A DNA stretch of 11,124 bases from Nitrospina sp. (lineage in GTDB: Bacteria > Nitrospinota > Nitrospinia > Nitrospinales > VA-1): the NCBI GenBank assembly GCA_018697205.1, contig JABHTG010000134.1:1-11124 (forward strand), given 5' to 3'. The number at the start of each line of letters is the position of its first letter. Position 1 is the first letter of the stretch. Both the position numbers and the translations under genes were made by a program. Below the pieces are notes generated by a model that had not been told where the DNA came from, did no database searches, and saw only the letters and a program-made list of their open reading frames with translations. This document shows positions 1 through 11,124 of this stretch, one piece after another.

Positions 1-71
1 CTAGATTAATATCACGCTTTCCTATTTCATAATAAGGAAAAACTGTTAACATTAAAATATAAAAACTATCT

Positions 72-76
72 AGGAG
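72..76 (+). promoter_or_regulatory. Shine-Dalgarno (AGGAG) 7 nt upstream of the SPFH gene ATG
   Basis: The AGGAG at 72-76 followed by ATG at 84 is read directly from the sequence. Confidence 0.5.
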
Positions 77-83
77 ATGGTAA

Positions 84-854
84 ATGGACGTTACCATAAT
101 CATTTTAATAATAGTTGGCCTGCTTCTTTTTAGCGCATTTAATGTTCTTAGAGAATATGAACGTGGAGTTATCTTTATGCTAGGTCGATACTGGAAAGTT
201 AAGGGACCTGGGCTCATCATAGTCATACCCGGAATTCAAAAAATCGTCAAAGTAAGCCTTCGCACAGTTGTAATGGACGTACCTCCCCAAGATATTATTA
301 CTCTAGACAATGTGACAGTTAAGGTTAACGCAGTTATATATTTTCGGGTAATGGACTCTAAGAAGGCTATCATAGAAGTCGAAGATTACCTTTACGCCAC
401 ATCCCAATTAGCCCAAACTACTCTACGAAGTATACTAGGTCAGAGTCAACTTGATGACCTTTTGTCTAAACGTGATGAAATCAACTCCCAACTTCAAAGA
501 GTGATTGACGAACAAACAGAACCATGGGGCGTTAAAGTTGCTAATGTTGAGGTTAAAAATGTTGATTTACCTCAAGAAATGCAGCGAGCCATAGCTAAAC
601 AGGCAGAAGCAGAGCGGGAACGACGTGCCAAAGTAATTAATGCCATGGGTGAGTTTGAAGCAGCGGAAAAATTAGGCCAAGCTGCAGATACTATAGGACA
701 GCATCCACCAGCGCTACAATTAAGATTTTTACAAACAATTTTAGACATCTCAACTGACCGAAACACAACCACCTTCTTCCCTCTCCCAATGGAACTTTTT
801 GAAGGATTTTACAAACAAAAACAATCTAAAAATGAGAACATAGATAGTAAATAA
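84..854 (+). CDS. SPFH/band-7 family membrane protein (stomatin/prohibitin-like, QmcA/YbbK type) with a single N-terminal TM anchor
   Basis: The N-terminal hydrophobic helix is [19 protein letters not shown]. The canonical SPFH core follows ([13 protein letters not shown]...[12 protein letters not shown]...[24 protein letters not shown]...[15 protein letters not shown]), and then an Ala/Glu/Arg-rich coiled-coil segment ([13 protein letters not shown]). A good SD lies upstream. Confidence 0.9.
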
Positions 855-945
855 GCCAGCTTTTTTCCGTTTATTTATGTTTTTAAGGAGGTCGTTTCCA
901 GCAAAGTAAAAGCTATAAATTAGTTCGCTATCTAAGTCTATTAAT

Positions 946-3900
946 ATGGAATCTCAAACAAAAATCCTAAACTTTCTGAATAGAGTTAGACGACTGCACT
1001 TTTATGCCCATACCCTCCAAGGAACCTATATCCTCCTAGCATATTTTACTGGAGCTGGTCTTTTAGGTTGTTTAATAGGGTTGAGCTATAAACCGGCTGA
1101 TGGATGGATTATTCCAGCAATAAGTTTTTTTTGCATAGGGTTGGTCTATATAGTTTACAAGTATTTCATCAAAATTCTAATCTCGCCGTTTTCCAATGAT
1201 GATGCAGCGCTACTTGCAGAGTCACGTTACCCAGAGGTAAATAACTCTCTCATAAATTCCTACCAATTAAGCAAACACCTTAAAGATTCGCATTTTAAAA
1301 ATACTATTTCCCTAAATTTAATCAAAGAGTTACACAAAAGAACAAGTAAAGAGCTAGACCAAATTGATCCAGCGTTATTAATCAGCCAAAGTAGTATAGT
1401 TTTTCATCGGAACTGGTTTTTTGGCATATTAGCGACGCTTGTACTAACAGTCATTTTTTTTCCCGAGCTTCTAACAAAGGGTTATGAAAATTGGGCTAAT
1501 CCTAGAATATTAGCTAAAACTGAACAAGATAAAATGGCTAATCAAAACCAGACAAAACCTAAGCTAGGTGCTGTCAATTACTCAATTGAATCTCTGGATT
1601 TAAATTTTCATTTTCCTTCATATACGCGAAAGAACTCTGAGCTAATAAAAAATTCTAAAGGAATAATCCATGTCCTACCTGGAACTGAAGTCAATATATC
1701 GGCTAAAACTAACACCAAGATAAATGGAGGAAATCTAATATTTAAAGGCAAAGACTCATTTGCCATGAAAAAAGAAAATAGTAAATACCTAAAGAGCAGT
1801 CTACTAGTCAAAGAAGGAGGGTTTTATCAGTTTAAAATTAAGGGTTCAGATGGTAGTGAGCAGCTGCTCGCAAAAAAATATCCAGTAACACTTGTTAAAG
1901 ATAACCCTCCTAACATTATTTTATTTTTAGCCAACCCTAGGCCAGTATATTTTCTCACTGATAAAGTTGAGTTGTTTTATGAAGGGAGTGATGATTTTGG
2001 CATAAATACAATAGATTTGGTTATTTCCATAAATGGAACAACAGAACGACTTCCAGTTAAAAAAAATAACAACCAAGAAAAGATGGCTAAAGGTAGTTAC
2101 ACCTGGTCTCTCGCGCAAATGTCTATAAATCCTGGCGATGAAGTTAATTACTATTTAGAAATTAATGATAATGATAATATTTTTGGCCCTAACAAAGGTC
2201 AGTCCGAGACCTACAGTTTTAAAATTTTTGACTCTGGAAAAGAGCTGGAAAACCTTGTTGAGATGCAAGAAGATCTTGTTGAAAAAATGATTGCTCTTCT
2301 AGCAACAGGACTAGTAAAAGGAGCATCTCTTAATAATCAACCAAACAACCTCATAGGCTGGAAAGAATTATTAACAGGCAATATTGATGAACTGATCAAA
2401 ATAGTAAGCCTTACACAGAAAGTTTACGACCGAGGAAAAGCAATTGATCAATTTCCTCAGAAATACTTAGACTTACTTAAAAATATTACCAGAGGATTAT
2501 CCCAAATTCGGAAAAATCAAATAAAATCTCTTAGTAACCTTCAAAGTCAAATTCATAAGCCCAACCAAGCAATACTAAAACTCATATCACCATACGCACC
2601 CGCCAATAATGAAATGACGGATCACCTCGAAAAAGATATTTTATTTTTAGTTAAAATGACCAATCAGCAAAAGATAACTAGAGCAAAGACTCTAGAGGAG
2701 GAGTTAAATGACCTCACCCAAAAACTACGAGAAGACTTAGAGAAATCCAACAACGAAAAAATTTCTAAAAACTCGAAAAAGTTAGTTGACAAAATAGATG
2801 AACTCCAAAAAGTTCTACAAAAATTGATGAACCAATTATCACGTCAGACGAATGGTACACCAGATGAGTTTTTAAACCCAGATGCCTTTAAGCGATTAAA
2901 TATTGAAAAGCTTTCTGATGCACTAAAAAAGATGCAGAATATGGTAAGCCGAGGAAAATTTGAAGAAGCTATAGAAGAATTAAAAAAAATGGAAGAAGAC
3001 CTCAAGCTTCTCGCGAATCAGATACATCGTGCTGACTCAGAAAAAGAAAGCTTTTTTGATCCAGAAACAATCAAAATAATAGATAGTAGTATCAAAAAAG
3101 TGGACAAATTAGAGAGGAGACAGCAGAAACTAGCAGAATCAACGACTCAAATAAACCAGGAGCTAAGAGAGCAGCAATCAAAAGCATTTGAAAACCAAAT
3201 TGACAAACTATTCAAGGGTCTACTCCTCGATATAGACTCAATCCGCAGTATTTTTAAAGAAGATGAAAAGTTCCTAGCAAGTCACAAAGCGATGAACCAA
3301 ATAAAGATTTTCATAGATAAAGAAATTGAGATGAAGAAAAAGATAAAACAATTAAGCCAAGCAACTGTCGATTTTTCAGGGTCAGAAAAACTAGACCAAA
3401 GCTTCACTAATCTTAAAGAAGCGCGCAATAAGCTCTCGGAGTTAATCGTAAAGAAAAGTTCACTTAATTTAGATGAGCCTCAGAAATTTAGAGAAACTCT
3501 ACCTCAAATACTTAAAAAATACGACTCCCTCAAAAAGCTGGCTAAGTTACAAGATCTTAATGAATTTAAAGATGTTTTCAAGCAGGCCTACCCAAATGTA
3601 TTGAGATGGCAGTATAAGATACGTACTACACCTAATCTCCGAAATGACATTTCAGACAAATTGGAAGAAGATTTAGCGCGAGTATCTCAGATAAATAACT
3701 CGATATCTAAAAAAATTGGTTCGATGGTACGCTCAATTAGAAAAAACTACAGTTCATCGATAACAAGGAATCAAAAAAAAGAATTAAAACAAATGGGAAA
3801 ACAGGAACAACAACTACAACAGGAAGTACAAAAACTGTCTAAGCAGTTTAATGAGTTAAGCAAAAAAAACCCAATGATACCCTCAGAGCTTTCACAAAGA

Positions 3901-4281
3901 ATGAAAAAAACCGCGCGTCATATGGAACAAGCGGCAACTAACCTTAAAGAACAAAATGTCCGCCAAAGTATCGAATCTGAAAACCAAGCCCTCAAAGGTC
4001 TAAACGAGACAAGCGACTTATTAAGGCAAATGAAAAGCTCTAACGGAGAAACGAAACAAGCAAAAAGACAAAATCCTCGAAAACTCGGGACTGGCAGCAG
4101 CCCAGATTCTCGACGAGGTAGTGCGTCACGAATGAAAAAAGAACACGTGCGACTCCCAGATGAAACCCAGTATAAAGCACCAAAAGAATTCCGCGAAGAA
4201 ATATTAAACGCAATGAAAAAACAAGCGCCTAAAAACTACGAACGTATGATTATGGAATATTATAAGGATCTAGTGCAGTGA
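946..4281 (+). CDS. Giant (1111 aa) membrane-anchored coiled-coil protein of unknown function. It has three N-terminal TM helices, a beta-rich module and a ~600-aa K/E/Q-rich coiled coil; the architecture is reminiscent of DUF4175/TIGR02302-like proteins
   Basis: The ORF is long and uninterrupted. Hydrophobic helices sit at aa ~27-46, 54-79 and 157-176 (nt ~1021-1473). A beta-strand-like region spans aa ~200-430. A heptad-like Lys/Glu/Gln-rich region spans nt ~2233-4066. There is a basic Arg/Ser-rich tail (RQNPRKLGTGSSPDSRRGSASR) and a conserved-looking C-terminus (YERMIMEYYKDL). The family assignment is from memory and not verified. Confidence 0.75.
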   Translation: MESQTKILNFLNRVRRLHFYAHTLQGTYILLAYFTGAGLLGCLIGLSYKPADGWIIPAISFFCIGLVYIVYKYFIKILISPFSNDDAALLAESRYPEVNNSLINSYQLSKHLKDSHFKNTISLNLIKELHKRTSKELDQIDPALLISQSSIVFHRNWFFGILATLVLTVIFFPELLTKGYENWANPRILAKTEQDKMANQNQTKPKLGAVNYSIESLDLNFHFPSYTRKNSELIKNSKGIIHVLPGTEVNISAKTNTKINGGNLIFKGKDSFAMKKENSKYLKSSLLVKEGGFYQFKIKGSDGSEQLLAKKYPVTLVKDNPPNIILFLANPRPVYFLTDKVELFYEGSDDFGINTIDLVISINGTTERLPVKKNNNQEKMAKGSYTWSLAQMSINPGDEVNYYLEINDNDNIFGPNKGQSETYSFKIFDSGKELENLVEMQEDLVEKMIALLATGLVKGASLNNQPNNLIGWKELLTGNIDELIKIVSLTQKVYDRGKAIDQFPQKYLDLLKNITRGLSQIRKNQIKSLSNLQSQIHKPNQAILKLISPYAPANNEMTDHLEKDILFLVKMTNQQKITRAKTLEEELNDLTQKLREDLEKSNNEKISKNSKKLVDKIDELQKVLQKLMNQLSRQTNGTPDEFLNPDAFKRLNIEKLSDALKKMQNMVSRGKFEEAIEELKKMEEDLKLLANQIHRADSEKESFFDPETIKIIDSSIKKVDKLERRQQKLAESTTQINQELREQQSKAFENQIDKLFKGLLLDIDSIRSIFKEDEKFLASHKAMNQIKIFIDKEIEMKKKIKQLSQATVDFSGSEKLDQSFTNLKEARNKLSELIVKKSSLNLDEPQKFRETLPQILKKYDSLKKLAKLQDLNEFKDVFKQAYPNVLRWQYKIRTTPNLRNDISDKLEEDLARVSQINNSISKKIGSMVRSIRKNYSSSITRNQKKELKQMGKQEQQLQQEVQKLSKQFNELSKKNPMIPSELSQRMKKTARHMEQAATNLKEQNVRQSIESENQALKGLNETSDLLRQMKSSNGETKQAKRQNPRKLGTGSSPDSRRGSASRMKKEHVRLPDETQYKAPKEFREEILNAMKKQAPKNYERMIMEYYKDLVQ

Positions 4282-5846
4282 AACATATGTTTTTTATAAT
4301 AAGTACTTGCCTGATTGGATTCAATTTAATCCCCCCACTTATTACATCAGCAATTGGGTTGCCTCAAAAAGAGATATATGCAGGGCACAAACTAATAGAT
4401 AAATGGAATACTAATGCAGCAGAGCAATATGCAAACAACTTACTTAAAAAGTATCCTAAATCAGGAGATGTATATTTCCTTAAAGCGCGCATAGAATTTT
4501 TAAAAGGAAACCATGAAATAGCCTGGGAAATTCTAAAACAAGTAAATAGTAACCATAAAGAAGTACGCGAATTCAAAAACCTCATCTACAACACCTACGA
4601 AGAAACAAAACTATTTACAACAAGCGAATCAAAACATTTTATCTACCGCTATCAAAAAGGACCGGATGAAATACTAGTTCATTATGCTACCCAAGCTATG
4701 GAAAAATCTTATGAGGTTCTAGGAAACATTTTAAATTACTATCCAAAAGAAAAAGTTTTAGTTGAGTTCTATCCGAACCAAAAATCCTTATCTAAAGTTT
4801 CTCCGTTAACTCTTGATGATATAACTACCTCCGGCACAGTCGCTCTCTGTAAATACAATCGAATTATGATTATCTCCCCAGGATCTTTAGTCCGCGGTTA
4901 CAATTGGATGGACACCTTGAGCCACGAATATATTCACTACATACTGACTAAGAAAAGCCAAAACAACCTACCTTTATGGTTACATGAGGGAATAGCAAAG
5001 TATTACGAAGCACGATGGAGAAATAAACACGAATACTTATCGCCCATCATGGAAACAATGCTTGCGGGAGGACTACAAGAAAACTATCTAATATCATTAG
5101 AGAATATGATGCCTTCGCTGGCAAAGCTAAAAACAGCCGAGGATGTTCAACTTGCTTATGCTGAAGTTTCTACAATGATTGAATACATTACCAAAGTTCA
5201 TGGAGATAAAATAATTTCAACTCTTCTGGAAAGATTGGCAAGAGAAGAAACATTTGAATCTGTAATATATACAACTCTAGGAACAAACCTAGATATAATT
5301 CAGGAAAATTGGAAGCACTTTGTAAAACAAAAACAACTCAAAATTATTCCAAGACTCAAGCCGCCAGGAGTTTATTTTAAAACAGACCGTTCGTCTAAAG
5401 AGCCAAGCAAAGAATATCGTGAAATTGATAATAGGAAGAGTCGAGACCTAATATTTTTAGGTGACGTTTTAAAATCAAGGAACTTTTATAAAGCAGCTCT
5501 TATCGAATATCAACGTGCGATCGAACAATCAAAAAATTTCTCCCCCCAACTCCATAACAAACTAGCCAAGACTCATCTAATCACCAGGGAATATAACAAA
5601 GCCAAAGTTATCCTAAATAGAAGCTTACATTACTATCCTATGTTTCACTCTACCCTTGCAAGTTTAGGTGAATTATATTTTGATCTAGGAAAAATAGAAA
5701 AATCTCGGACTTTCTATGAACGAGCGATTAAAATTAACCCTTTCAATCCTTTTGTTCATATGCGACTAATAACGATCTACCAAAAACTAGGGTGGAAAAA
5801 AGAAAAAGCATTACAGGTAAAACTTGCCGGCTATATAAACCACTAA
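4278..5846 (+). CDS. Secreted or periplasmic TPR-repeat protein with a gluzincin-like (peptidase MA-type) HExxH...E zinc-binding motif; putative metalloprotease
   Basis: The start codon GTG at 4278 overlaps the upstream TGA stop (GTGA); an alternative ATG lies at 4287. The N-terminal hydrophobic signal or anchor is FFIISTCLIGFNLIPPLI. A TPR-like helix pair is near the N-terminus, and HEYIH sits at nt 4923-4937 with the downstream Glu at 4986-4988 (WLHEG). C-terminal TPR repeats follow (YKAALIEYQRAIE..., LGELYFDLGKIEKSRTFYERAIKINP). Confidence 0.7.
   Translation: MKHMFFIISTCLIGFNLIPPLITSAIGLPQKEIYAGHKLIDKWNTNAAEQYANNLLKKYPKSGDVYFLKARIEFLKGNHEIAWEILKQVNSNHKEVREFKNLIYNTYEETKLFTTSESKHFIYRYQKGPDEILVHYATQAMEKSYEVLGNILNYYPKEKVLVEFYPNQKSLSKVSPLTLDDITTSGTVALCKYNRIMIISPGSLVRGYNWMDTLSHEYIHYILTKKSQNNLPLWLHEGIAKYYEARWRNKHEYLSPIMETMLAGGLQENYLISLENMMPSLAKLKTAEDVQLAYAEVSTMIEYITKVHGDKIISTLLERLAREETFESVIYTTLGTNLDIIQENWKHFVKQKQLKIIPRLKPPGVYFKTDRSSKEPSKEYREIDNRKSRDLIFLGDVLKSRNFYKAALIEYQRAIEQSKNFSPQLHNKLAKTHLITREYNKAKVILNRSLHYYPMFHSTLASLGELYFDLGKIEKSRTFYERAIKINPFNPFVHMRLITIYQKLGWKKEKALQVKLAGYINH
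4923..4988 (+). other. HExxH + downstream E zincin signature (HEYIH x16 E) inside the TPR protein
   Basis: The motif is read directly from the translation: H216-E217-x-x-H220 ... E237. Confidence 0.6.
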
Positions 5847-5870
5847 TTAACCTTTCAATTAAAACGTAGA

Positions 5871-6860
5871 ATGACTACAAACTTAGAACTAGTAAAAGAG
5901 TTAGTGGATTCCAAAAGTCTCATCATAAAAGAAATTCGTAAAGTGATCGTAGGACAAGACGACGTACTAGAAGATTTGCTGGTAGCTCTTTTTTGCAAAG
6001 GGCATTGCCTTTTTGTTGGTGTCCCCGGCTTGGCAAAAACACTACTTGTAAAAACTCTAGCGAGGGTACTAAACCTTAGTTTTAGTAGAATACAATTTAC
6101 TCCTGACCTGATGCCTTCAGATATTACAGGAACAGATATACTTTATGAAGATCACACAACCAACAAAAGGGGTTTTCGCTTTATAAAAGGTCCGATTTTT
6201 TCAAATATTGTTTTAGCCGATGAAATAAATCGAACCCCACCTAAGACGCAAGCCGCGCTGCTCCAGGCGATGCAGGAACAGCAGGTAACCGTTGGTGGAA
6301 ATACCTATGAACTAGATCAACCTTTTCTAGTTTTTGCGACACAAAATCCCATTGAGCACGAAGGTACTTACCCCTTACCTGAAGCACAACTCGACCGTTT
6401 TATGTTCATAATAAATGTAGGTTATCCTACAATGAAACAAGAAGTGAGAATTGCGATGACCACTACTTCTGGAATACACCCAGAAATGAATATGGTGTTA
6501 AATGCAAAACAGGTGAAAGATTTTCAAAGGCTAGTGCCATGCGTTCCAGTTTCAGAGCATGTCGCTGAGTATGCAGTAAGGCTAGCGCAAAGTTCACGTC
6601 CAAGTAAAAATGGTAGTACTCCCGACTTTATAAACGAGTGGGTTGATTGGGGAGCTGGACCTCGTGCTTCTCAATATCTCCTAATGGGGGCAAAAGCACG
6701 CGCCCTAATGGACAATAGAGTCGCTGCAACTATCGAAGATGTTAAACGTGTAACCCGCCAAGTCCTTGAACACAGAATCATACTTAACTTCAAGGCCAAA
6801 GCCGAAAATATCACCACAAATGATATCATCGAAAAACTTTTAAAATCAATCAAGGCATAA
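5871..6860 (+). CDS. MoxR-family AAA+ ATPase (AAA_3 / MRP subfamily)
   Basis: Walker A GVPGLAKT sits at nt 6018-6041 and Walker B is VLADEINR. The MoxR-diagnostic stretch is PPKTQAALLQAMQEQQVTVGG...FLVFATQNPIEHEGTYPLPEAQLDRF. The length (329 aa) is typical. Confidence 0.92.
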   Translation: MTTNLELVKELVDSKSLIIKEIRKVIVGQDDVLEDLLVALFCKGHCLFVGVPGLAKTLLVKTLARVLNLSFSRIQFTPDLMPSDITGTDILYEDHTTNKRGFRFIKGPIFSNIVLADEINRTPPKTQAALLQAMQEQQVTVGGNTYELDQPFLVFATQNPIEHEGTYPLPEAQLDRFMFIINVGYPTMKQEVRIAMTTTSGIHPEMNMVLNAKQVKDFQRLVPCVPVSEHVAEYAVRLAQSSRPSKNGSTPDFINEWVDWGAGPRASQYLLMGAKARALMDNRVAATIEDVKRVTRQVLEHRIILNFKAKAENITTNDIIEKLLKSIKA

Positions 6861-6861
6861 A

Positions 6862-7500
6862 CTAGGAAGGGCTAATTAGGCCGGCTGTTTTCCAATCAAC
6901 TTTCAACTCTTTAACTACCCCTGAGCGAGTACAATATTTCACATGACCATGTGATTCGCCATACAGAAACAAATCTCGGGTAATCTCAACATCTTGTTTG
7001 CAGTACTCAATAATCTTGTCTATTTTTCCTTCTTTATACCATTGCAAAGAAACCAAACCGTCAGCACTTTTTTTTGCATTCAGTGAGTTTTCTGCTAAAT
7101 GATTAAGGCTAAGTCTGTGGTTAAGTTTGGCCTTAATATCGTCCAACATGTCAAAAGTAGCTATTTCATTAAGGTCAAAATCAGCGTATGGCTGCAATAC
7201 AGTATAATCAAATTTTTTCACATTAAACCCCACAACCAGATCGGCTTTACTAAGTTTTTCGACTAACTGGGAAGCCTCGCTTTCAAGGTAGCTAAAATGC
7301 TTTTGCTCAACACTGTCCCACACTACACCCACAGCAAGCCCCATAAGGTGAATATTTCCCCACCCTCCAACGTCGTCAGCGCTTTTTTGAGTTTCCAAGT
7401 CAAAATAAAGCACACGATACGAATTCAACGCTTTAGGGATAGTTTTAGGCTCTATTTTATTCTTTATGGGGTCTTCAAACAGGTCCAACTGCTCTGACAT
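6862..7500 (-). CDS. DEDDy-type 3'-5' exonuclease (DnaQ/RNase D/PolB-exo-like fold), standalone 212 aa
   Basis: Exo I is FDLET (D34, E36). Exo II is FNVKKFD (D98). Exo III is YCKQD (Y166-x3-D170). These are read from the reverse-strand translation. Confidence 0.7.
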   Translation of the reverse strand: MSEQLDLFEDPIKNKIEPKTIPKALNSYRVLYFDLETQKSADDVGGWGNIHLMGLAVGVVWDSVEQKHFSYLESEASQLVEKLSKADLVVGFNVKKFDYTVLQPYADFDLNEIATFDMLDDIKAKLNHRLSLNHLAENSLNAKKSADGLVSLQWYKEGKIDKIIEYCKQDVEITRDLFLYGESHGHVKYCTRSGVVKELKVDWKTAGLISPS

Positions 7501-7707
7501 ATCGCACTAACTCCAAATATTAATACCGTTCACGGCGGCTCAAAGGACATAGTTTTAATTGAACTTGATAACTCTAGCACTCCCCAGAATCAAATCAAGA
7601 AAAACAACTTAACATCAAATAAAATAAACCCTTAGATAAAATTTTTTAAAACTCTTTAAAGCTACGACCAATCGGTTAAAAACAATCACCTAAACCCTTG
7701 AAATCAA

Positions 7708-7736
7708 TTAAAGATATGATTTTTAGAAACCGATAA
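7708..7736 (+). promoter_or_regulatory. Candidate sigma-28 (FliA) class-III flagellar promoter upstream of fliD
   Basis: TAAA at 7709-7712 and ACCGATAA at 7729-7736 compare with the consensus TAAA-N15-GCCGATAA; the spacing here is 16. The element lies ~57 nt upstream of the fliD ATG. Confidence 0.4.
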
Positions 7737-7792
7737 AATCTATGAAGAGAATTGGTGAAAACATTCCCACCTAAAAGGGTCCAATATATTTT

Positions 7793-9415
7793 ATGGCACA
7801 AAACGCAGTATTTGGCATAAATTCTAATCTAGACACTCAGGATATCATCAATAAGATGGTTTCACTGGAAGCTCGGTCGATGGATCTTATCGAAGCCAAA
7901 AAACAAATAGAGCAGCAAAAGTTGTCTAGTTTTCAGGAATTAAAAAATAGGTTACAAACGTTCAAAAGCGTTGTAACCACATTAAATACCGAAAGCCGCT
8001 TTATAGTTAATAAAAGCTCTTTTTCAAATAGCAGCTCTTCAGACAGCAATAAAGTCGTAGATATAACTACCACCAGTTCAGCAACTTCTGGCACATATTC
8101 ACTAATAGTTAATAACCTAGCTACTGAAACAAAAATTATTTCAGAAGGCTTTCCTACTACTACTTCAGAAGTAACAATGAGTAGCTTAGTTGTCACCGTT
8201 GGCGGAGTTGCAAAAACAATTAATGTCGATAGTTCAAATAATACGGTAGATGGCCTAAGGCTAGCTATTAACAACCTAGGGCTTGATGTGAAGGCATCTT
8301 TTTTAAATGATGGCGATGATACTAATCCAATTCGACTTCTTATTTCGGGTAATTTAACTGGAGCAAGCGGGGCTGTAACGGTGGTTAATCCTGTTAGTGG
8401 AATAGGAACAGGAGCATTATCAGGTATAGACTTCAAAACAAAACAATATGCCCAAAATGCTAGTTTTACAATAGATGGTGTTGCTGTTAGTAAATCGTCT
8501 AATACTGTTTCAGACGTTATTAGCGGCGCGGCCTTAAAGCTGCAATCAGCTGGTTCAGGAACTATCTCTCTTTCCACAGATACAGATGCGATAACCAGCA
8601 AAGTCTCTGACTTTGTAGATGAATACAATGAAATTTCTTTATTCCTTCGTGAACAGCTAGCGTTAGATCCAGAGTCTGAGGAGACGGGTGTGTTATTTGG
8701 CAATTTTGCCGTACAAAATTTACAACAAATCCTTCGAAGTTCAATAAGTAGTGAAGTAACTGGTATTAGCGGTGACTATAAATACCTTTCGCAAATCGGT
8801 ATTACCACTGAGTCAGACGGGTCTCTAGTTTTAGATACCGATGACCTTTCTGAAGCATTAATAGACGACATACAGAATGTAAGCCAGCTGTTTTCGAGTA
8901 AAGGAACCGTAACACATTCATCTGTAGCTTATGTCGGCTTCACTAGCGATACAGAGCCGGGATACTACGACTTAAAAGTAGCTAACGGAGTCCCTCAACT
9001 GAGTAACTCAGGGGCCGCTACCTTTGTGAACGCTTCCGGATCTGGAAATTTTTGGGCAGGTTCCTCAGGAGATGCAACTGGCCTTAACTTTCGTATCAGT
9101 AATTTATCTAATGGTGATTATGGACAAGTATGGCTATCAATCGGAGTCGCAGAAATTCTTAATCGCCAGTTGGAGAATATGGTTGACTCTTCATTAAATG
9201 GCCCCTTGGTCACAGAAGTTGACACGATCACCGAGACAGTTGACGATTTCAATATAACACTACTTAACCAAGCAGAACGTCTACTTGAATTCGAAGAAAG
9301 CCTTAAAGCAAAATTTTCCAACTTAGAAATTGTCCTGGGAAGACTTAACGCACAAAGAGATACCTTTAATAGCTCTTTAGCAGGAATTCAAAATATTTTC
9401 TCTCAGAAAAAATAA
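7793..9415 (+). CDS. fliD: Flagellar filament cap protein FliD (hook-associated protein 2)
   Basis: The N-terminal FliD_N-like segment is GINSNLDTQDIINKMVSLEARSMDLIEAKKQIEQQKLSSFQELKNRLQTFKSVVTTLN. The central domain is Ser/Thr-rich and variable. The C-terminal FliD_C-like helix is KAKFSNLEIVLGRLNAQRDTFNSSLAGIQ. Confidence 0.9.
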   Translation: MAQNAVFGINSNLDTQDIINKMVSLEARSMDLIEAKKQIEQQKLSSFQELKNRLQTFKSVVTTLNTESRFIVNKSSFSNSSSSDSNKVVDITTTSSATSGTYSLIVNNLATETKIISEGFPTTTSEVTMSSLVVTVGGVAKTINVDSSNNTVDGLRLAINNLGLDVKASFLNDGDDTNPIRLLISGNLTGASGAVTVVNPVSGIGTGALSGIDFKTKQYAQNASFTIDGVAVSKSSNTVSDVISGAALKLQSAGSGTISLSTDTDAITSKVSDFVDEYNEISLFLREQLALDPESEETGVLFGNFAVQNLQQILRSSISSEVTGISGDYKYLSQIGITTESDGSLVLDTDDLSEALIDDIQNVSQLFSSKGTVTHSSVAYVGFTSDTEPGYYDLKVANGVPQLSNSGAATFVNASGSGNFWAGSSGDATGLNFRISNLSNGDYGQVWLSIGVAEILNRQLENMVDSSLNGPLVTEVDTITETVDDFNITLLNQAERLLEFEESLKAKFSNLEIVLGRLNAQRDTFNSSLAGIQNIFSQKK

Positions 9416-9448: not shown

Positions 9449-9895
9449 ATGGTTAAGCATAGATTTCATAAAGAATATCATAAAAACGAAATAGCTACTT
9501 CCAGCCAGGCTAAACTAATCGTCATGATGTACGAAGGTGCCTTAAAATTCGTAAATTTGGCTATCGAGGGAATTGACAATCACGACCTATCAAAAAAAGG
9601 GAAATATATCAATAAAACTCACGATATCATAAATGAGCTGTCGTGTGCTTTAGACATGAAAAAAGGTGGTGAGGTGTCCCAAAAACTTGAATCGCTTTAT
9701 CAATTTATTCTTCATCAATTAACCCTAGCTAATATTAAATCAGATCGTAAAACTCTCGAGTCGATAGTAAGTGTTATCACACCACTAATGGAAGCTTGGA
9801 AAGAATTATTAGTGAAAAAGAATACTAACGACAAAGGCAATAGCCACCAAAACATATCTACCCAGCCACACAAAAAGATCGCATCAAAATGTTGA
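9449..9895 (+). CDS. fliS: Flagellin-specific export chaperone FliS
   Basis: The protein is 148 aa. Conserved FliS blocks are LIVMMYEGALKFVNLAIEGI, KGKYINKTHDIINELSCALDMKKGGEVSQKLESLYQFILHQL and PLMEAWKEL. It lies immediately downstream of fliD, with a 33-nt gap. Confidence 0.9.
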   Translation: MVKHRFHKEYHKNEIATSSQAKLIVMMYEGALKFVNLAIEGIDNHDLSKKGKYINKTHDIINELSCALDMKKGGEVSQKLESLYQFILHQLTLANIKSDRKTLESIVSVITPLMEAWKELLVKKNTNDKGNSHQNISTQPHKKIASKC

Positions 9896-10092: not shown

Positions 10093-11124
10093 ATGAATAT
10101 TCACGAATATCAGGCAAAGGAAGTCCTTGCAAAACACGGTGTAGCTGTTCCTAAGGGTGTAGTCATCGATAACCCAGATAAAGCAGAAGATGTTTCTCGC
10201 CAACTAGGAACAGATGTTGTCGTAGTAAAAGCCCAAATTCATGCTGGAGGACGAGGTAAAGGCGGAGGAGTTAAGCTTGCCAATAGCCCAAAAGAAGCCA
10301 AAGTTCATGCAAAAAAAATAATAGGAATGCAATTAGTAACACCCCAAACTGGAACAGAGGGCCGAAAGGTCAAAAAGATTCTAATAGAAGAAGGTATGCC
10401 TATTGATAAAGAACTCTATCTAGGCATCCTTCTGGATAGGCAGAGTAGTCGTGTAATGATTATGGCAAGCGAAGCTGGCGGTATGGCAATCGAAGAGGTC
10501 GCCGAAGAAACTCCGGAAAAAATTATCAAAGAAATAATCGACCCTATTATTGGAGTTAAACCTTATCTAGCTAGAAAAATAGCATTTGCTCTCAATGTAA
10601 AAGGAAACGCTCTTAAACAAATGATTCCTTTAATAATCAATCTTTATCAGGCTTTTCTTAAAGAAGATTGCGATATGCTAGAAATCAACCCTCTTGTCAT
10701 AACAAAAGACGAACGAGTCCTTGTCCTTGATGCAAAAGTTAATATTGACAGTAATGCCCTCTACCGCCAAAAAGAAATTCTTGCATACCGAGATCTAGAT
10801 GAAGAAGATCCCATGGAAGTGGAAGCCAGTAAATTCGACTTAAACTATATTAAACTTGATGGAAATATTGGTTGTATGGTCAATGGGGCTGGCTTAGCCA
10901 TGGCAACTATGGACATAATCAAACATTCAGGTGGCGAACCCGCGAACTTCTTGGATGTTGGAGGCGGAGCTGATGAGGAAAAAATTGAAAATGGATTTCG
11001 CATTCTACTATCAGACCCGCATGTAAAAGGAATATTTATTAATATATTTGGCGGCATTTTACGTTGTGACATTCTGGCTCGAGGTGTTGAGATCGCAGCC
11101 AAAAAACTAAAAGTAAAAATCCCA
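10093..11124 (+). CDS. sucC: Succinyl-CoA synthetase (ADP-forming) beta subunit, 5' partial (344 codons, runs off the window end)
   Basis: The product begins [22 protein letters not shown]...[20 protein letters not shown] and includes the ATP-grasp region. [17 protein letters not shown]...NFLDVGGGA and [13 protein letters not shown] are diagnostic of SucC. The ORF is not in the six-frame track because there is no stop within the window. Confidence 0.9.

Follow-up and report, generated by a model that had tools for sequence, protein, structure and literature searches.

A TPR-flanked gluzincin encoded beside a DUF4175 membrane protein in Nitrospina sp.: a candidate component of a Bat/MoxR-like cell-envelope module

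We find that a Nitrospina sp. contig encodes a gluzincin flanked by tetratricopeptide-type (TPR) modules, and that its gene keeps company with a DUF4175 membrane protein gene across bacterial phyla. The window, meaning the whole stretch of DNA that was analysed, comprises 11,124 nucleotides and comes from a member of the Nitrospinaceae. Our preferred reading, which we hold with moderate confidence, is that the protein is a periplasmic zinc gluzincin working with DUF4175, and often with a MoxR ATPase, in a Bat/MoxR-like module of the cell envelope. The single protein is ordinary, being a predicted peptidase of an already catalogued type (Peptidase_MA_2) in a marine nitrite-oxidiser lineage; the interest lies in its gene context. 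The DUF4175-peptidase(-MoxR) gene module appears to be previously undescribed, as full-text searches of open-access papers returned no description of either the peptidase or the module. DUF4175 is a large and common membrane protein for which we know of no function. Envelope, stress and morphology phenotypes are associated with the widespread MoxR-proper ATPases and Bat-type operons; to our knowledge, no molecular mechanism has been established for them. A protease that adjoins DUF4175 across phyla, often together with MoxR, could thus give an experimental handle on the function of both DUF4175 and MoxR/Bat. The features that we refer to below are as follows.

84..854, + strand: SPFH/Band 7 membrane protein, a lineage-specific upstream neighbour (Pfam Band_7, 131 bits)
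946..4281, + strand: DUF4175 membrane protein, 1111 aa (Pfam DUF4175, 67.6 bits)
4278..4281, + strand: GTGA start/stop overlap of the peptidase gene with the upstream DUF4175 gene (from the sequence)
4278..5846, + strand: TPR-flanked gluzincin gene (Peptidase_MA_2 family), complete, 522 aa (ORF list, Pfam match)
4278..4355, + strand: predicted Sec signal peptide, aa 1-26, likely cleavage TSA/IG (hydrophobicity, homologue N-termini)
4365..4607, + strand: N-terminal TPR-like module, aa 30-110, five helices (Pfam and AlphaFold)
4608..5327, + strand: gluzincin catalytic domain (Peptidase_MA_2), aa 111-350
4848..4850, + strand: Cys191, on a beta-strand of the sheet preceding the active-site helix (invariance across phyla, model strand 189-192)
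4923..4937, + strand: HEYIH, with predicted zinc ligands His216 and His220 and predicted catalytic Glu217 (sequence, invariance)
4986..4988, + strand: Glu237 in LWLHEG, predicted third zinc ligand (invariance, helix 233-243)
5328..5432, + strand: flexible linker, aa 351-385 (pLDDT 57-79 and no regular secondary structure in the full-length model)
5433..5837, + strand: C-terminal TPR domain, aa 386-520, eight helices forming four TPRs
5871..6860, + strand: MoxR-type AAA+ ATPase (AAA_3), a frequent partner, 24 nt 3' of the peptidase gene (Pfam AAA_3 at 211 bits, plus AAA_lid_2)

The central domain is confirmed as a gluzincin of the Pfam family Peptidase_MA_2. An earlier note on this DNA had read HEYIH and the Glu of LWLHEG as an HExxH+E arrangement, and both the sequence and a family match above cut-off bear this out. 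HEYIH spans residues 216-220, and 16 residues separate His220 from Glu237, whose codon is GAG. By a rough estimate from typical residue frequencies, about 1-2% of proteins of this size (522 aa) would carry an HExxH by chance. A Glu as third zinc ligand on the next helix sets gluzincins apart from metzincins and aspzincins. Searched with the full protein, Peptidase_MA_2 (PF13485) matches residues 184-350 at 53.3 bits against a cut-off of 32.4 (E 4e-14); the catalytic domain alone reaches 55.6 bits, and all 50 relatives tested, from several phyla, match the family above cut-off. The note had named the domain type as 'Peptidase_MA_2/DUF1570', and the first half of that label stands. The second half does not: DUF1570 (PF07607) scores 16.0-17.2 bits, short of its cut-off of 22, and only 10 of the 50 relatives match it at E <= 0.01.

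The active-site residues are strictly conserved. The note had proposed an orthologue comparison at H216, E217, H220 and E237, and all four are invariant throughout alignments A1, A2 and A4: none varies among 60 Nitrospinota homologues or among 75 relatives as little as 26% identical. Among the 150 best representatives of 50%-identity clusters, HExxH is kept in every one, an EG-type Glu motif follows it in 143 and the x16 spacing is found in 142; four of the seven without an EG-type motif carry Glu-Ala. Cys191 likewise never varies in alignments A1 and A4, and its conservation in A2 is 90% or higher. No other part of the protein is as well conserved as the catalytic domain, at 57-93% identity versus 51-89% for the full length in the same sequence set. 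From this motif and its conservation, we predict that His216, His220 and Glu237 bind zinc, that Glu217 acts as the general base, and that the protein is proteolytically active.

These data bear directly on the idea, also raised in the note, that the zincin domain is non-catalytic and the protein a periplasmic TPR adaptor or scaffold. Such a role would fit the TPR modules on either side of the zincin domain. M1 and M4 enzymes stabilise the transition state by a Tyr or His, and a residue of this kind was sought in the alignments with none assignable; Tyr294 is replaced by Phe in most distant relatives. Pseudo-enzymes normally lose their catalytic residues, however, and here those residues persist down to 26% identity, HExxH occurs in all 150 representatives, and the catalytic domain is better conserved than the protein as a whole. 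Because the catalytic residues are under such strict conservation, we consider the scaffold reading very unlikely.

The predicted structure agrees with the profile matches. A solenoid of TPRs or other helices throughout had been the note's stated alternative to a zincin fold; the central domain is instead predicted to take the gluzincin fold, with the two subdomains of thermolysin-like enzymes. HEYIH lies inside the model helix 210-227, and Glu237 inside the following helix, 233-243. TPRs were expected on both sides of the peptidase domain and are found there by profile and by fold, as tandem 34-residue helix-turn-helix repeats. The domain order is signal peptide, about 2.5 TPR-like repeats, Peptidase_MA_2 domain, flexible linker and four C-terminal TPRs. 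Pfam matches to TPR_17, TPR_19 and ANAPC3 at residues 44-100 mark the N-terminal module, and AlphaFold places its helices at 30-41, 45-58, 63-75, 79-86 and 94-110 with pLDDT >90. The TPR modules on both flanks most likely serve as protein-docking surfaces. When the PDB was searched by sequence, the full peptidase matched only TPR proteins. A subfamily profile of the catalytic domain matched no PDB sequence even at E <= 10, and thus no solved relative of this domain is detectable by sequence.

The protein is probably exported. Residues 4-28 are its sole hydrophobic segment, and every aligned homologue has a signal-peptide-like N-terminus that ends at an AXA-type site (TSA/IG, ANA/AP or FAS/LP). 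A hydrophobic segment at the N-terminus is present in 113 of the 121 distant representatives that show the complete architecture. The signal-peptide call was made by inspection of these N-termini, and it upholds the suggestion that the hydrophobic N-terminus is a secretion signal, through which the peptidase would reach the periplasm by the Sec route. We also considered a lipoprotein anchored at Cys11. The lipobox L-[AS]-[GA]-C does not fit, since I-S-T-C is found there, with Thr at -1, and a lipoprotein is unlikely because Cys11 varies among homologues. Metagenomes contain a protein identical to the 522-residue peptidase, and homologues at 51-89% identity come from Nitrospinaceae and Ca. Nitromaritima.

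At this locus the peptidase gene is paired with the DUF4175 gene. The peptidase ORF starts with GTG, and this codon shares the sequence GTGA at 4278-4281 with the TGA stop of the preceding DUF4175 ORF; a Shine-Dalgarno-like AAGGA lies 9 nt 5' of this start. The 4-nt overlap suggests that translation of the peptidase gene is coupled to that of the DUF4175 gene, and the same overlap recurs at related loci (L001, L003, L047, L049, L039, L045 and L069). Neighbourhood counts were drawn from the 80 best-scoring related loci. There, 68 of 72 loci have a DUF4175 gene immediately 5' of the peptidase gene; they represent at least six lineages, among them Nitrospinota, Brocadiales, Myxococcota, Bradymonadia, Thermodesulfobacteriota and Dadabacteria. 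The pair stays constant while the genes that flank it vary between phyla.

The DUF4175 protein has three transmembrane helices (26-48, 51-75 and 156-179). Together with the positive-inside rule, these place about 930 of its residues in the periplasm, in a predicted region composed of a beta-rich part, a long helical part and a conserved C-terminal tail. The tail, which comes after a low-complexity stretch, follows a strictly conserved pattern that is shared across phyla (V.IP....Y..P..FR..IL.AMK...P..Y......YY..L-COOH). The peptidase would be produced along with DUF4175, an inner-membrane protein whose gene directly precedes its own, and DUF4175 is most likely its target or its working partner, through a putative physical contact.

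A stand-alone secreted protease, devoted to housekeeping or nutrient scavenging and functionally unrelated to its neighbours, would account for some of the same observations: the closest folds, those of M30 hyicolysin-type enzymes and M9 collagenases, belong to secreted degradative endopeptidases, and the Brocadiales loci have no MoxR gene. It would leave unexplained why the DUF4175 pair persists when the surrounding genes change between phyla. If the two had no function in common, it would be difficult to account for their adjacency in 68 of 72 loci, where the stop and start codons often overlap. Furthermore, the TPR modules suggest specific protein partners, not bulk substrate. We judge a stand-alone protease to be quite improbable.

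The note had proposed action in concert with the adjacent membrane proteins, which is supported for DUF4175 and unsupported for the SPFH protein. The SPFH gene is separated from the DUF4175 gene by 91 nt; Nitrospinaceae loci alone have it upstream, and other phyla do not. Because of this restricted occurrence we reject it as a core partner, and the SPFH protein is probably outside the core module.

The gene downstream of the peptidase, which the note did not mention, encodes a cytoplasmic MoxR ATPase and is a frequent third partner. This MoxR-proper AAA+ (AAA_3) gene is in the same transcription unit, 24 nt away on the same strand, and its translation shows a Walker A (GVPGLAKT) and a Walker B (LADE) motif. 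At 35 of 73 loci, the gene immediately 3' of the peptidase gene encodes MoxR. At two loci (L047 and L049), DUF4175, peptidase and MoxR form a unit with opposite-strand genes on either side. In 19 more distant loci, DUF58 and BatA-N/VWA genes come after MoxR, giving the set of genes that is canonical for Bat/MoxR. No DUF58 or BatA-N/VWA gene occurs in the window or within 10 kb in Nitrospinaceae loci, and no DUF58/VWA gene was found nearby in Dadabacteria and Thermodesulfobacteriales loci. The Brocadiales loci and some Myxococcota loci have no MoxR gene nearby, so MoxR is not an obligatory partner. A promoter and terminator scan of positions 1-7800 does not set the operon boundaries, because shuffled sequence contained more promoter-like sites and the scan turned up no terminator of use.

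Two other assignments were rejected. No PADLOC model matches the peptidase, and the resemblances of the DUF4175 helical part (to ZorA) and of MoxR (to DolB) are weak and compositional only; we reject a defence-system reading. Flagellar genes (fliD and fliS) are adjacent, and the NCBIfam model 'flagellinolysin' gives 20 bits against a cut-off of 205; we attribute this to generic HExxH similarity and reject a flagellar protease.

In the reading that we prefer, the DUF4175-peptidase pair would be co-transcribed with the cytoplasmic MoxR ATPase in Nitrospina sp. and in many other bacteria. Together the three proteins would make up a module of the cell envelope that is akin to the Bat/MoxR ('aerotolerance', cmd) operons. 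The peptidase of this module may process, mature or clear envelope proteins by analogy with BepA. Any control of the peptidase by MoxR is putative. A more specific and speculative version, which we think unlikely as it stands, holds that an undescribed envelope module, present in at least six bacterial lineages, has DUF4175 and the TPR-gluzincin as its conserved core, that the TPR groove docks the DUF4175 tail, and that MoxR, where present, gates periplasmic proteolysis through the 75-residue cytoplasmic loop of DUF4175 at aa 80-155. If this were true, DUF4175, TPR-gluzincin and MoxR would act as a protease switch that spans the membrane under the control of ATP, and would represent a branch of the poorly understood Bat/MoxR systems that carries a protease.

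Among known peptidases, the window protein shares HExxH and the downstream Glu with Peptidase_MA_2, the 'peptidase MA family metallohydrolase' of NCBI, a name already given there to a close homologue (P0027). PF13485 is a broad, computationally defined group, and the fixed architecture and fixed DUF4175 neighbour of this subfamily lie outside its definition; no characterised member was found in the open-access full-text literature. The closest folds are the M30 hyicolysin-type enzymes (lugdulysin, PDB 7bb8), the M9 collagenases (7wss, 4ar8 and 2y3u) and M1 aminopeptidases (ERAP1, APN, LTA4H and tricorn factor F3), to which sequence identity is only 10-15%. The M9 enzymes have collagen-binding and activator domains, whereas the window peptidase has neither. 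The note had named an M48/M1-like fold as something to search for. M48 gives no match, and M1 likeness is at fold level only: just 2 of 50 subfamily members match the M1 Pfam model, and weakly, and the residues of the beta-strand region that precedes HExxH are SGTVALCKYNR, which lacks the GxMEN motif of exopeptidases. The absence of GxMEN from this strand makes an aminopeptidase mechanism of the M1 type unlikely, and since this anchor of the substrate amino terminus in M1 aminopeptidases is not seen, the peptidase is probably an endopeptidase.

BepA (YfgC) of E. coli offers the nearest functional analogy. This M48 metalloprotease of the periplasm carries a TPR domain at its C-terminus and acts in outer-membrane protein quality control, and the TPR domain docks the protease on an envelope machine for client maturation or degradation (PMC8423444, PMC7950410). 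On paper the two proteins are alike, each a Sec-exported HExxH...E zinc protease with a TPR docking domain (PMC8423444, PMC7950410). This shared logic would also suit a BepA-like quality-control factor serving other envelope machines, for instance outer-membrane protein assembly intermediates, with DUF4175 only an anchor or regulator and MoxR acting elsewhere. BepA binds substrate by an edge strand (PMC8423444), and the invariant Cys191 is strand-borne, which points the same way. We regard such a factor as improbable.

The Bat/MoxR operons remain the closest parallel at the level of gene context. According to PMC5700661, Bat/cmd operons combine MoxR with VWA and TPR proteins, TPR proteins being standard members, and their mutants have cell-envelope and cell-shape phenotypes. 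Such defects, with the predicted periplasmic location of the peptidase, could indicate that the zincin domain cleaves a non-protein amide (peptidoglycan stem peptides, or a lipid- or glycan-linked peptide) in cell-wall remodelling. This appears extremely doubtful, as a Pfam scan found no peptidoglycan-binding domain (LysM, SPOR or PG_binding) and the close structural neighbours all act on polypeptides or peptides. In the passages of PMC5700661 considered here, no protease is mentioned for Bat operons, and none was found in searches of the open-access literature. The Bacteroides BatI, Rhizobium cmdA-D and spirochaete bat operons share with the window locus an adjacent MoxR-proper AAA+ gene. Their constant partner is a VWA protein, whereas in the loci related to ours that place is taken by DUF4175, together with a TPR protein that bears a gluzincin domain.

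The protein encoded at 4278-5846, a TPR-flanked protein that we call the peptidase, is of an already known type: it matches a Pfam family, and a close homologue is listed by NCBI as 'peptidase MA family metallohydrolase'. HExxH by itself is a common motif. Here it is more than chance, because it lies inside a Peptidase_MA_2 match (aa 184-350) scoring 53.3 bits against a curated cut-off of 32.4. The peptidase-MA-like domain claimed in the earlier note is thus borne out, and the ORF list and translation place the reading frame, HEYIH and the downstream Glu where that note had them. Its assignment to the DUF1570 type fell below threshold (Pfam score 16, cut-off 22), and no M48 or M1 Pfam model matched the protein. 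A 'flagellinolysin' identity was rejected as a weak match of generic HExxH similarity.

Features of the window (position, strand, description)
84-854, +, SPFH/Band 7, stomatin-like membrane protein, separated by 91 nt from the DUF4175 gene that follows
946-4281, +, DUF4175 protein, 1111 aa
4278-5846, +, peptidase, 522 aa, GTG start
4923-4937, +, HEYIH, aa 216-220
4986-4988, +, GAG codon of Glu237, within LWLHEG; 16 residues between His220 and Glu237
5871-6860, +, MoxR (AAA_3, 211 bits)
6862-7500, -, convergent 3'-5' exonuclease gene, 212 aa, DnaQ-like (DNA_pol_A_exo1 / RNase_H_2)
7793-9415, +, fliD (flagellar filament cap)
9449-9895, +, fliS (chaperone)
10093-11124, +, open frame off the 3' end, resembling a succinyl-CoA-synthetase-type ligase beta subunit

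Conservation of H216, E217, H220 and E237 among orthologues held in each of three alignments. All four residues are kept in 60/60 Nitrospinota homologues (Nitrospinaceae and Ca. Nitromaritima), which are 51-89% identical to the peptidase. They are among only ten invariant columns of a 75-sequence alignment reaching down to 26% identity, and are invariant again in a 50-sequence domain alignment from genomes of several phyla, together with Cys191, Trp234, Gly238, Lys241, Glu244 and M-x-P at 277-279. With aa 100-372, the catalytic region, as query against 1.84 billion cluster representatives, we obtained 2697 matches at E <= 1e-3, of which 376 reached E <= 1e-30. The best 150 of these 2697 are mostly 500-600 aa long with the domain equally positioned; HExxH is kept in all 150, and an EG-type Glu motif follows it in 143 (with the x16 spacing in 142), with Glu-Ala in 4 of the remaining 7. 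A pseudo-protease, retaining the fold as a scaffold, is unlikely given this strict conservation of catalytic residues. Cys191 (4848-4850) is a single Cys in the beta-strand before the active-site helix (ALCKYNR); it is also invariant in the 60-sequence alignment and at least 90% conserved in the 75-sequence one, with relatives from six lineages. It might sense redox state, act as an additional metal ligand or be structural.

An AlphaFold2 model built on the 60-sequence alignment (pLDDT 91.1, pTM 0.89) divides the peptidase as follows.

Predicted elements of the peptidase (AlphaFold2)
Residues 2-16, signal helix
Residues 30-110, five helices
Residues 113-199, beta-sheet with helices
Residues 210-227, HExxH-bearing helix
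Residues 233-243, Glu237-bearing helix
Up to residue 350, helical subdomain
Residues 351-385, low-confidence linker
Residues 386-520, eight helices

Fold similarity, at only 10-15% sequence identity, was greatest to M30 lugdulysin (16.5), followed by M9 collagenases (15.7, 13.7, 12.8), M1 enzymes (ERAP1, PSA, APN, LTA4H and factor F3; 11.1-14.6), M61 (11.3) and thermolysin (10.3). On these similarities the central domain is modeled as a gluzincin fold, rather than the pure solenoid without a zincin fold that would have told against the earlier note. A subfamily sequence profile matched no PDB chain at E <= 10, and the subfamily therefore has no solved member.

The signal peptide or anchor that had been read at the N-terminus is upheld: aa 4-28 form the sole hydrophobic stretch, and a signal-peptide-like N-terminus with an AXA-type site occurs in every homologue. 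An N-terminal hydrophobic segment is also present in 113/121 distant cluster representatives of full architecture. These features point to a periplasmic location. A lipoprotein formed via Cys11 is unlikely, as homologues do not consistently keep this residue, which follows a Thr.

The peptidase gene is tightly joined to its upstream neighbor. In the sequence GTGA (4278-4281), the DUF4175 stop codon (TGA) and the peptidase start codon (GTG) overlap; AAGGA lies 9 nt before the start, and alignment puts the start at the same position in homologues. Scanning one genome per species, with neighbors detected by tblastn using the window proteins, we found peptidase relatives in at least 594 genomes. 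The best 80 loci span Nitrospinota, anammox Planctomycetota (Brocadiales), Myxococcota, Bradymonadia, Thermodesulfobacteriota, Dadabacteria and a gammaproteobacterial MAG. Among them, a DUF4175 homologue lies directly upstream on the same strand in 68 of the 72 loci with enough upstream sequence, and MoxR directly downstream in 35/73. In six diverse loci the upstream proteins exceed the Pfam threshold for DUF4175, and the 4-nt stop/start overlap recurs across unrelated phyla. One Dadabacteria and one Thermodesulfobacteriales locus contain the trio by itself, with genes of the opposite strand on either side; in Brocadia the linkage is limited to DUF4175 and the peptidase, amid unrelated genes. 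A stand-alone scavenging protease is unlikely because this linkage crosses phyla. In one Planctomycetota locus (L020, 7306-10001), ~2.7 kb separates the two genes, in contrast to the tight junction elsewhere.

DUF58 and BatA-N/VWA follow MoxR in 19 of the best 80 loci, mostly Myxococcota and Bradymonadia (L042, L045, L046, L048, L054-L057, L059-L061, L064, L065, L067, L071, L076, L077, L080 and L082), giving the canonical Bat/MoxR set. Neither gene was found within 10 kb in the Nitrospinaceae, Dadabacteria and Thermodesulfobacteriales loci. SPFH proteins are often partners of membrane proteases. The SPFH-DUF4175-peptidase-MoxR order is kept in Nitrospinaceae contigs whose peptidases are 78% and 55% identical to this one; among the best 80 loci SPFH is a neighbor in Nitrospinaceae only, a lineage-specific link. 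Downstream, the exonuclease gene converges on moxR with stop codons one base apart, leaving no terminator room, and fliD-fliS synteny is kept in other Nitrospinaceae loci. The L001 equivalent of the terminal frame (ATP-grasp_2, Ligase_CoA) precedes genes for an alpha subunit and for a 2-oxoacid:ferredoxin oxidoreductase, an arrangement that would be consistent with reverse-TCA genes. Promoter and terminator scans were uninformative, and PADLOC defence models gave nothing meaningful.

DUF4175 has hydrophobic helices at 26-48, 51-75 and 156-179 and a positively charged N-terminus; by the positive-inside rule, its 75-residue loop would be cytoplasmic and ~930 residues periplasmic. Its last 45 residues (4144-4278), compared in L004-L083, are strikingly conserved across phyla (V.IP....Y..P..FR..IL.AMK...P..Y......YY..L-COOH) and follow a low-complexity, variable stretch. 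C-terminal peptides are common ligands of TPR domains, which makes this tail a candidate docking site for the peptidase TPRs. No solved DUF4175 relative was found by sequence. AT skew is very high (0.27-0.33) at 2500-4500, the second half of the gene, coinciding with a Lys/Glu/Gln-rich helical region; this is probably a codon-composition effect, not a separate feature.

Full-text searches of the open-access literature found no papers on Peptidase_MA_2/PF13485 and no link of DUF4175 to a protease or to the gene module seen here. The DUF4175-peptidase gene linkage thus appears undescribed so far, and offers a testable handle on the function of DUF4175 and MoxR-proper. We propose that, after Sec export, the protein acts as a zinc endopeptidase that processes or clears envelope proteins; its TPR modules would tether it to DUF4175, or to proteins that DUF4175 holds. 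A BepA-like factor with other clients is a less probable alternative, and a hydrolase of a cell-wall amide a less probable one still. M1 aminopeptidases carry a GxMEN anchor, whereas the corresponding strand here reads SGTVALCKYNR; because this anchor is absent, we prefer an endopeptidase over an aminopeptidase. In many lineages, peptidase action would be set within a MoxR-containing, Bat-like module. PMC5700661 ties Bat/cmd operons with MoxR, VWA and TPR proteins, although of no known mechanism, to cell shape and an intact envelope.
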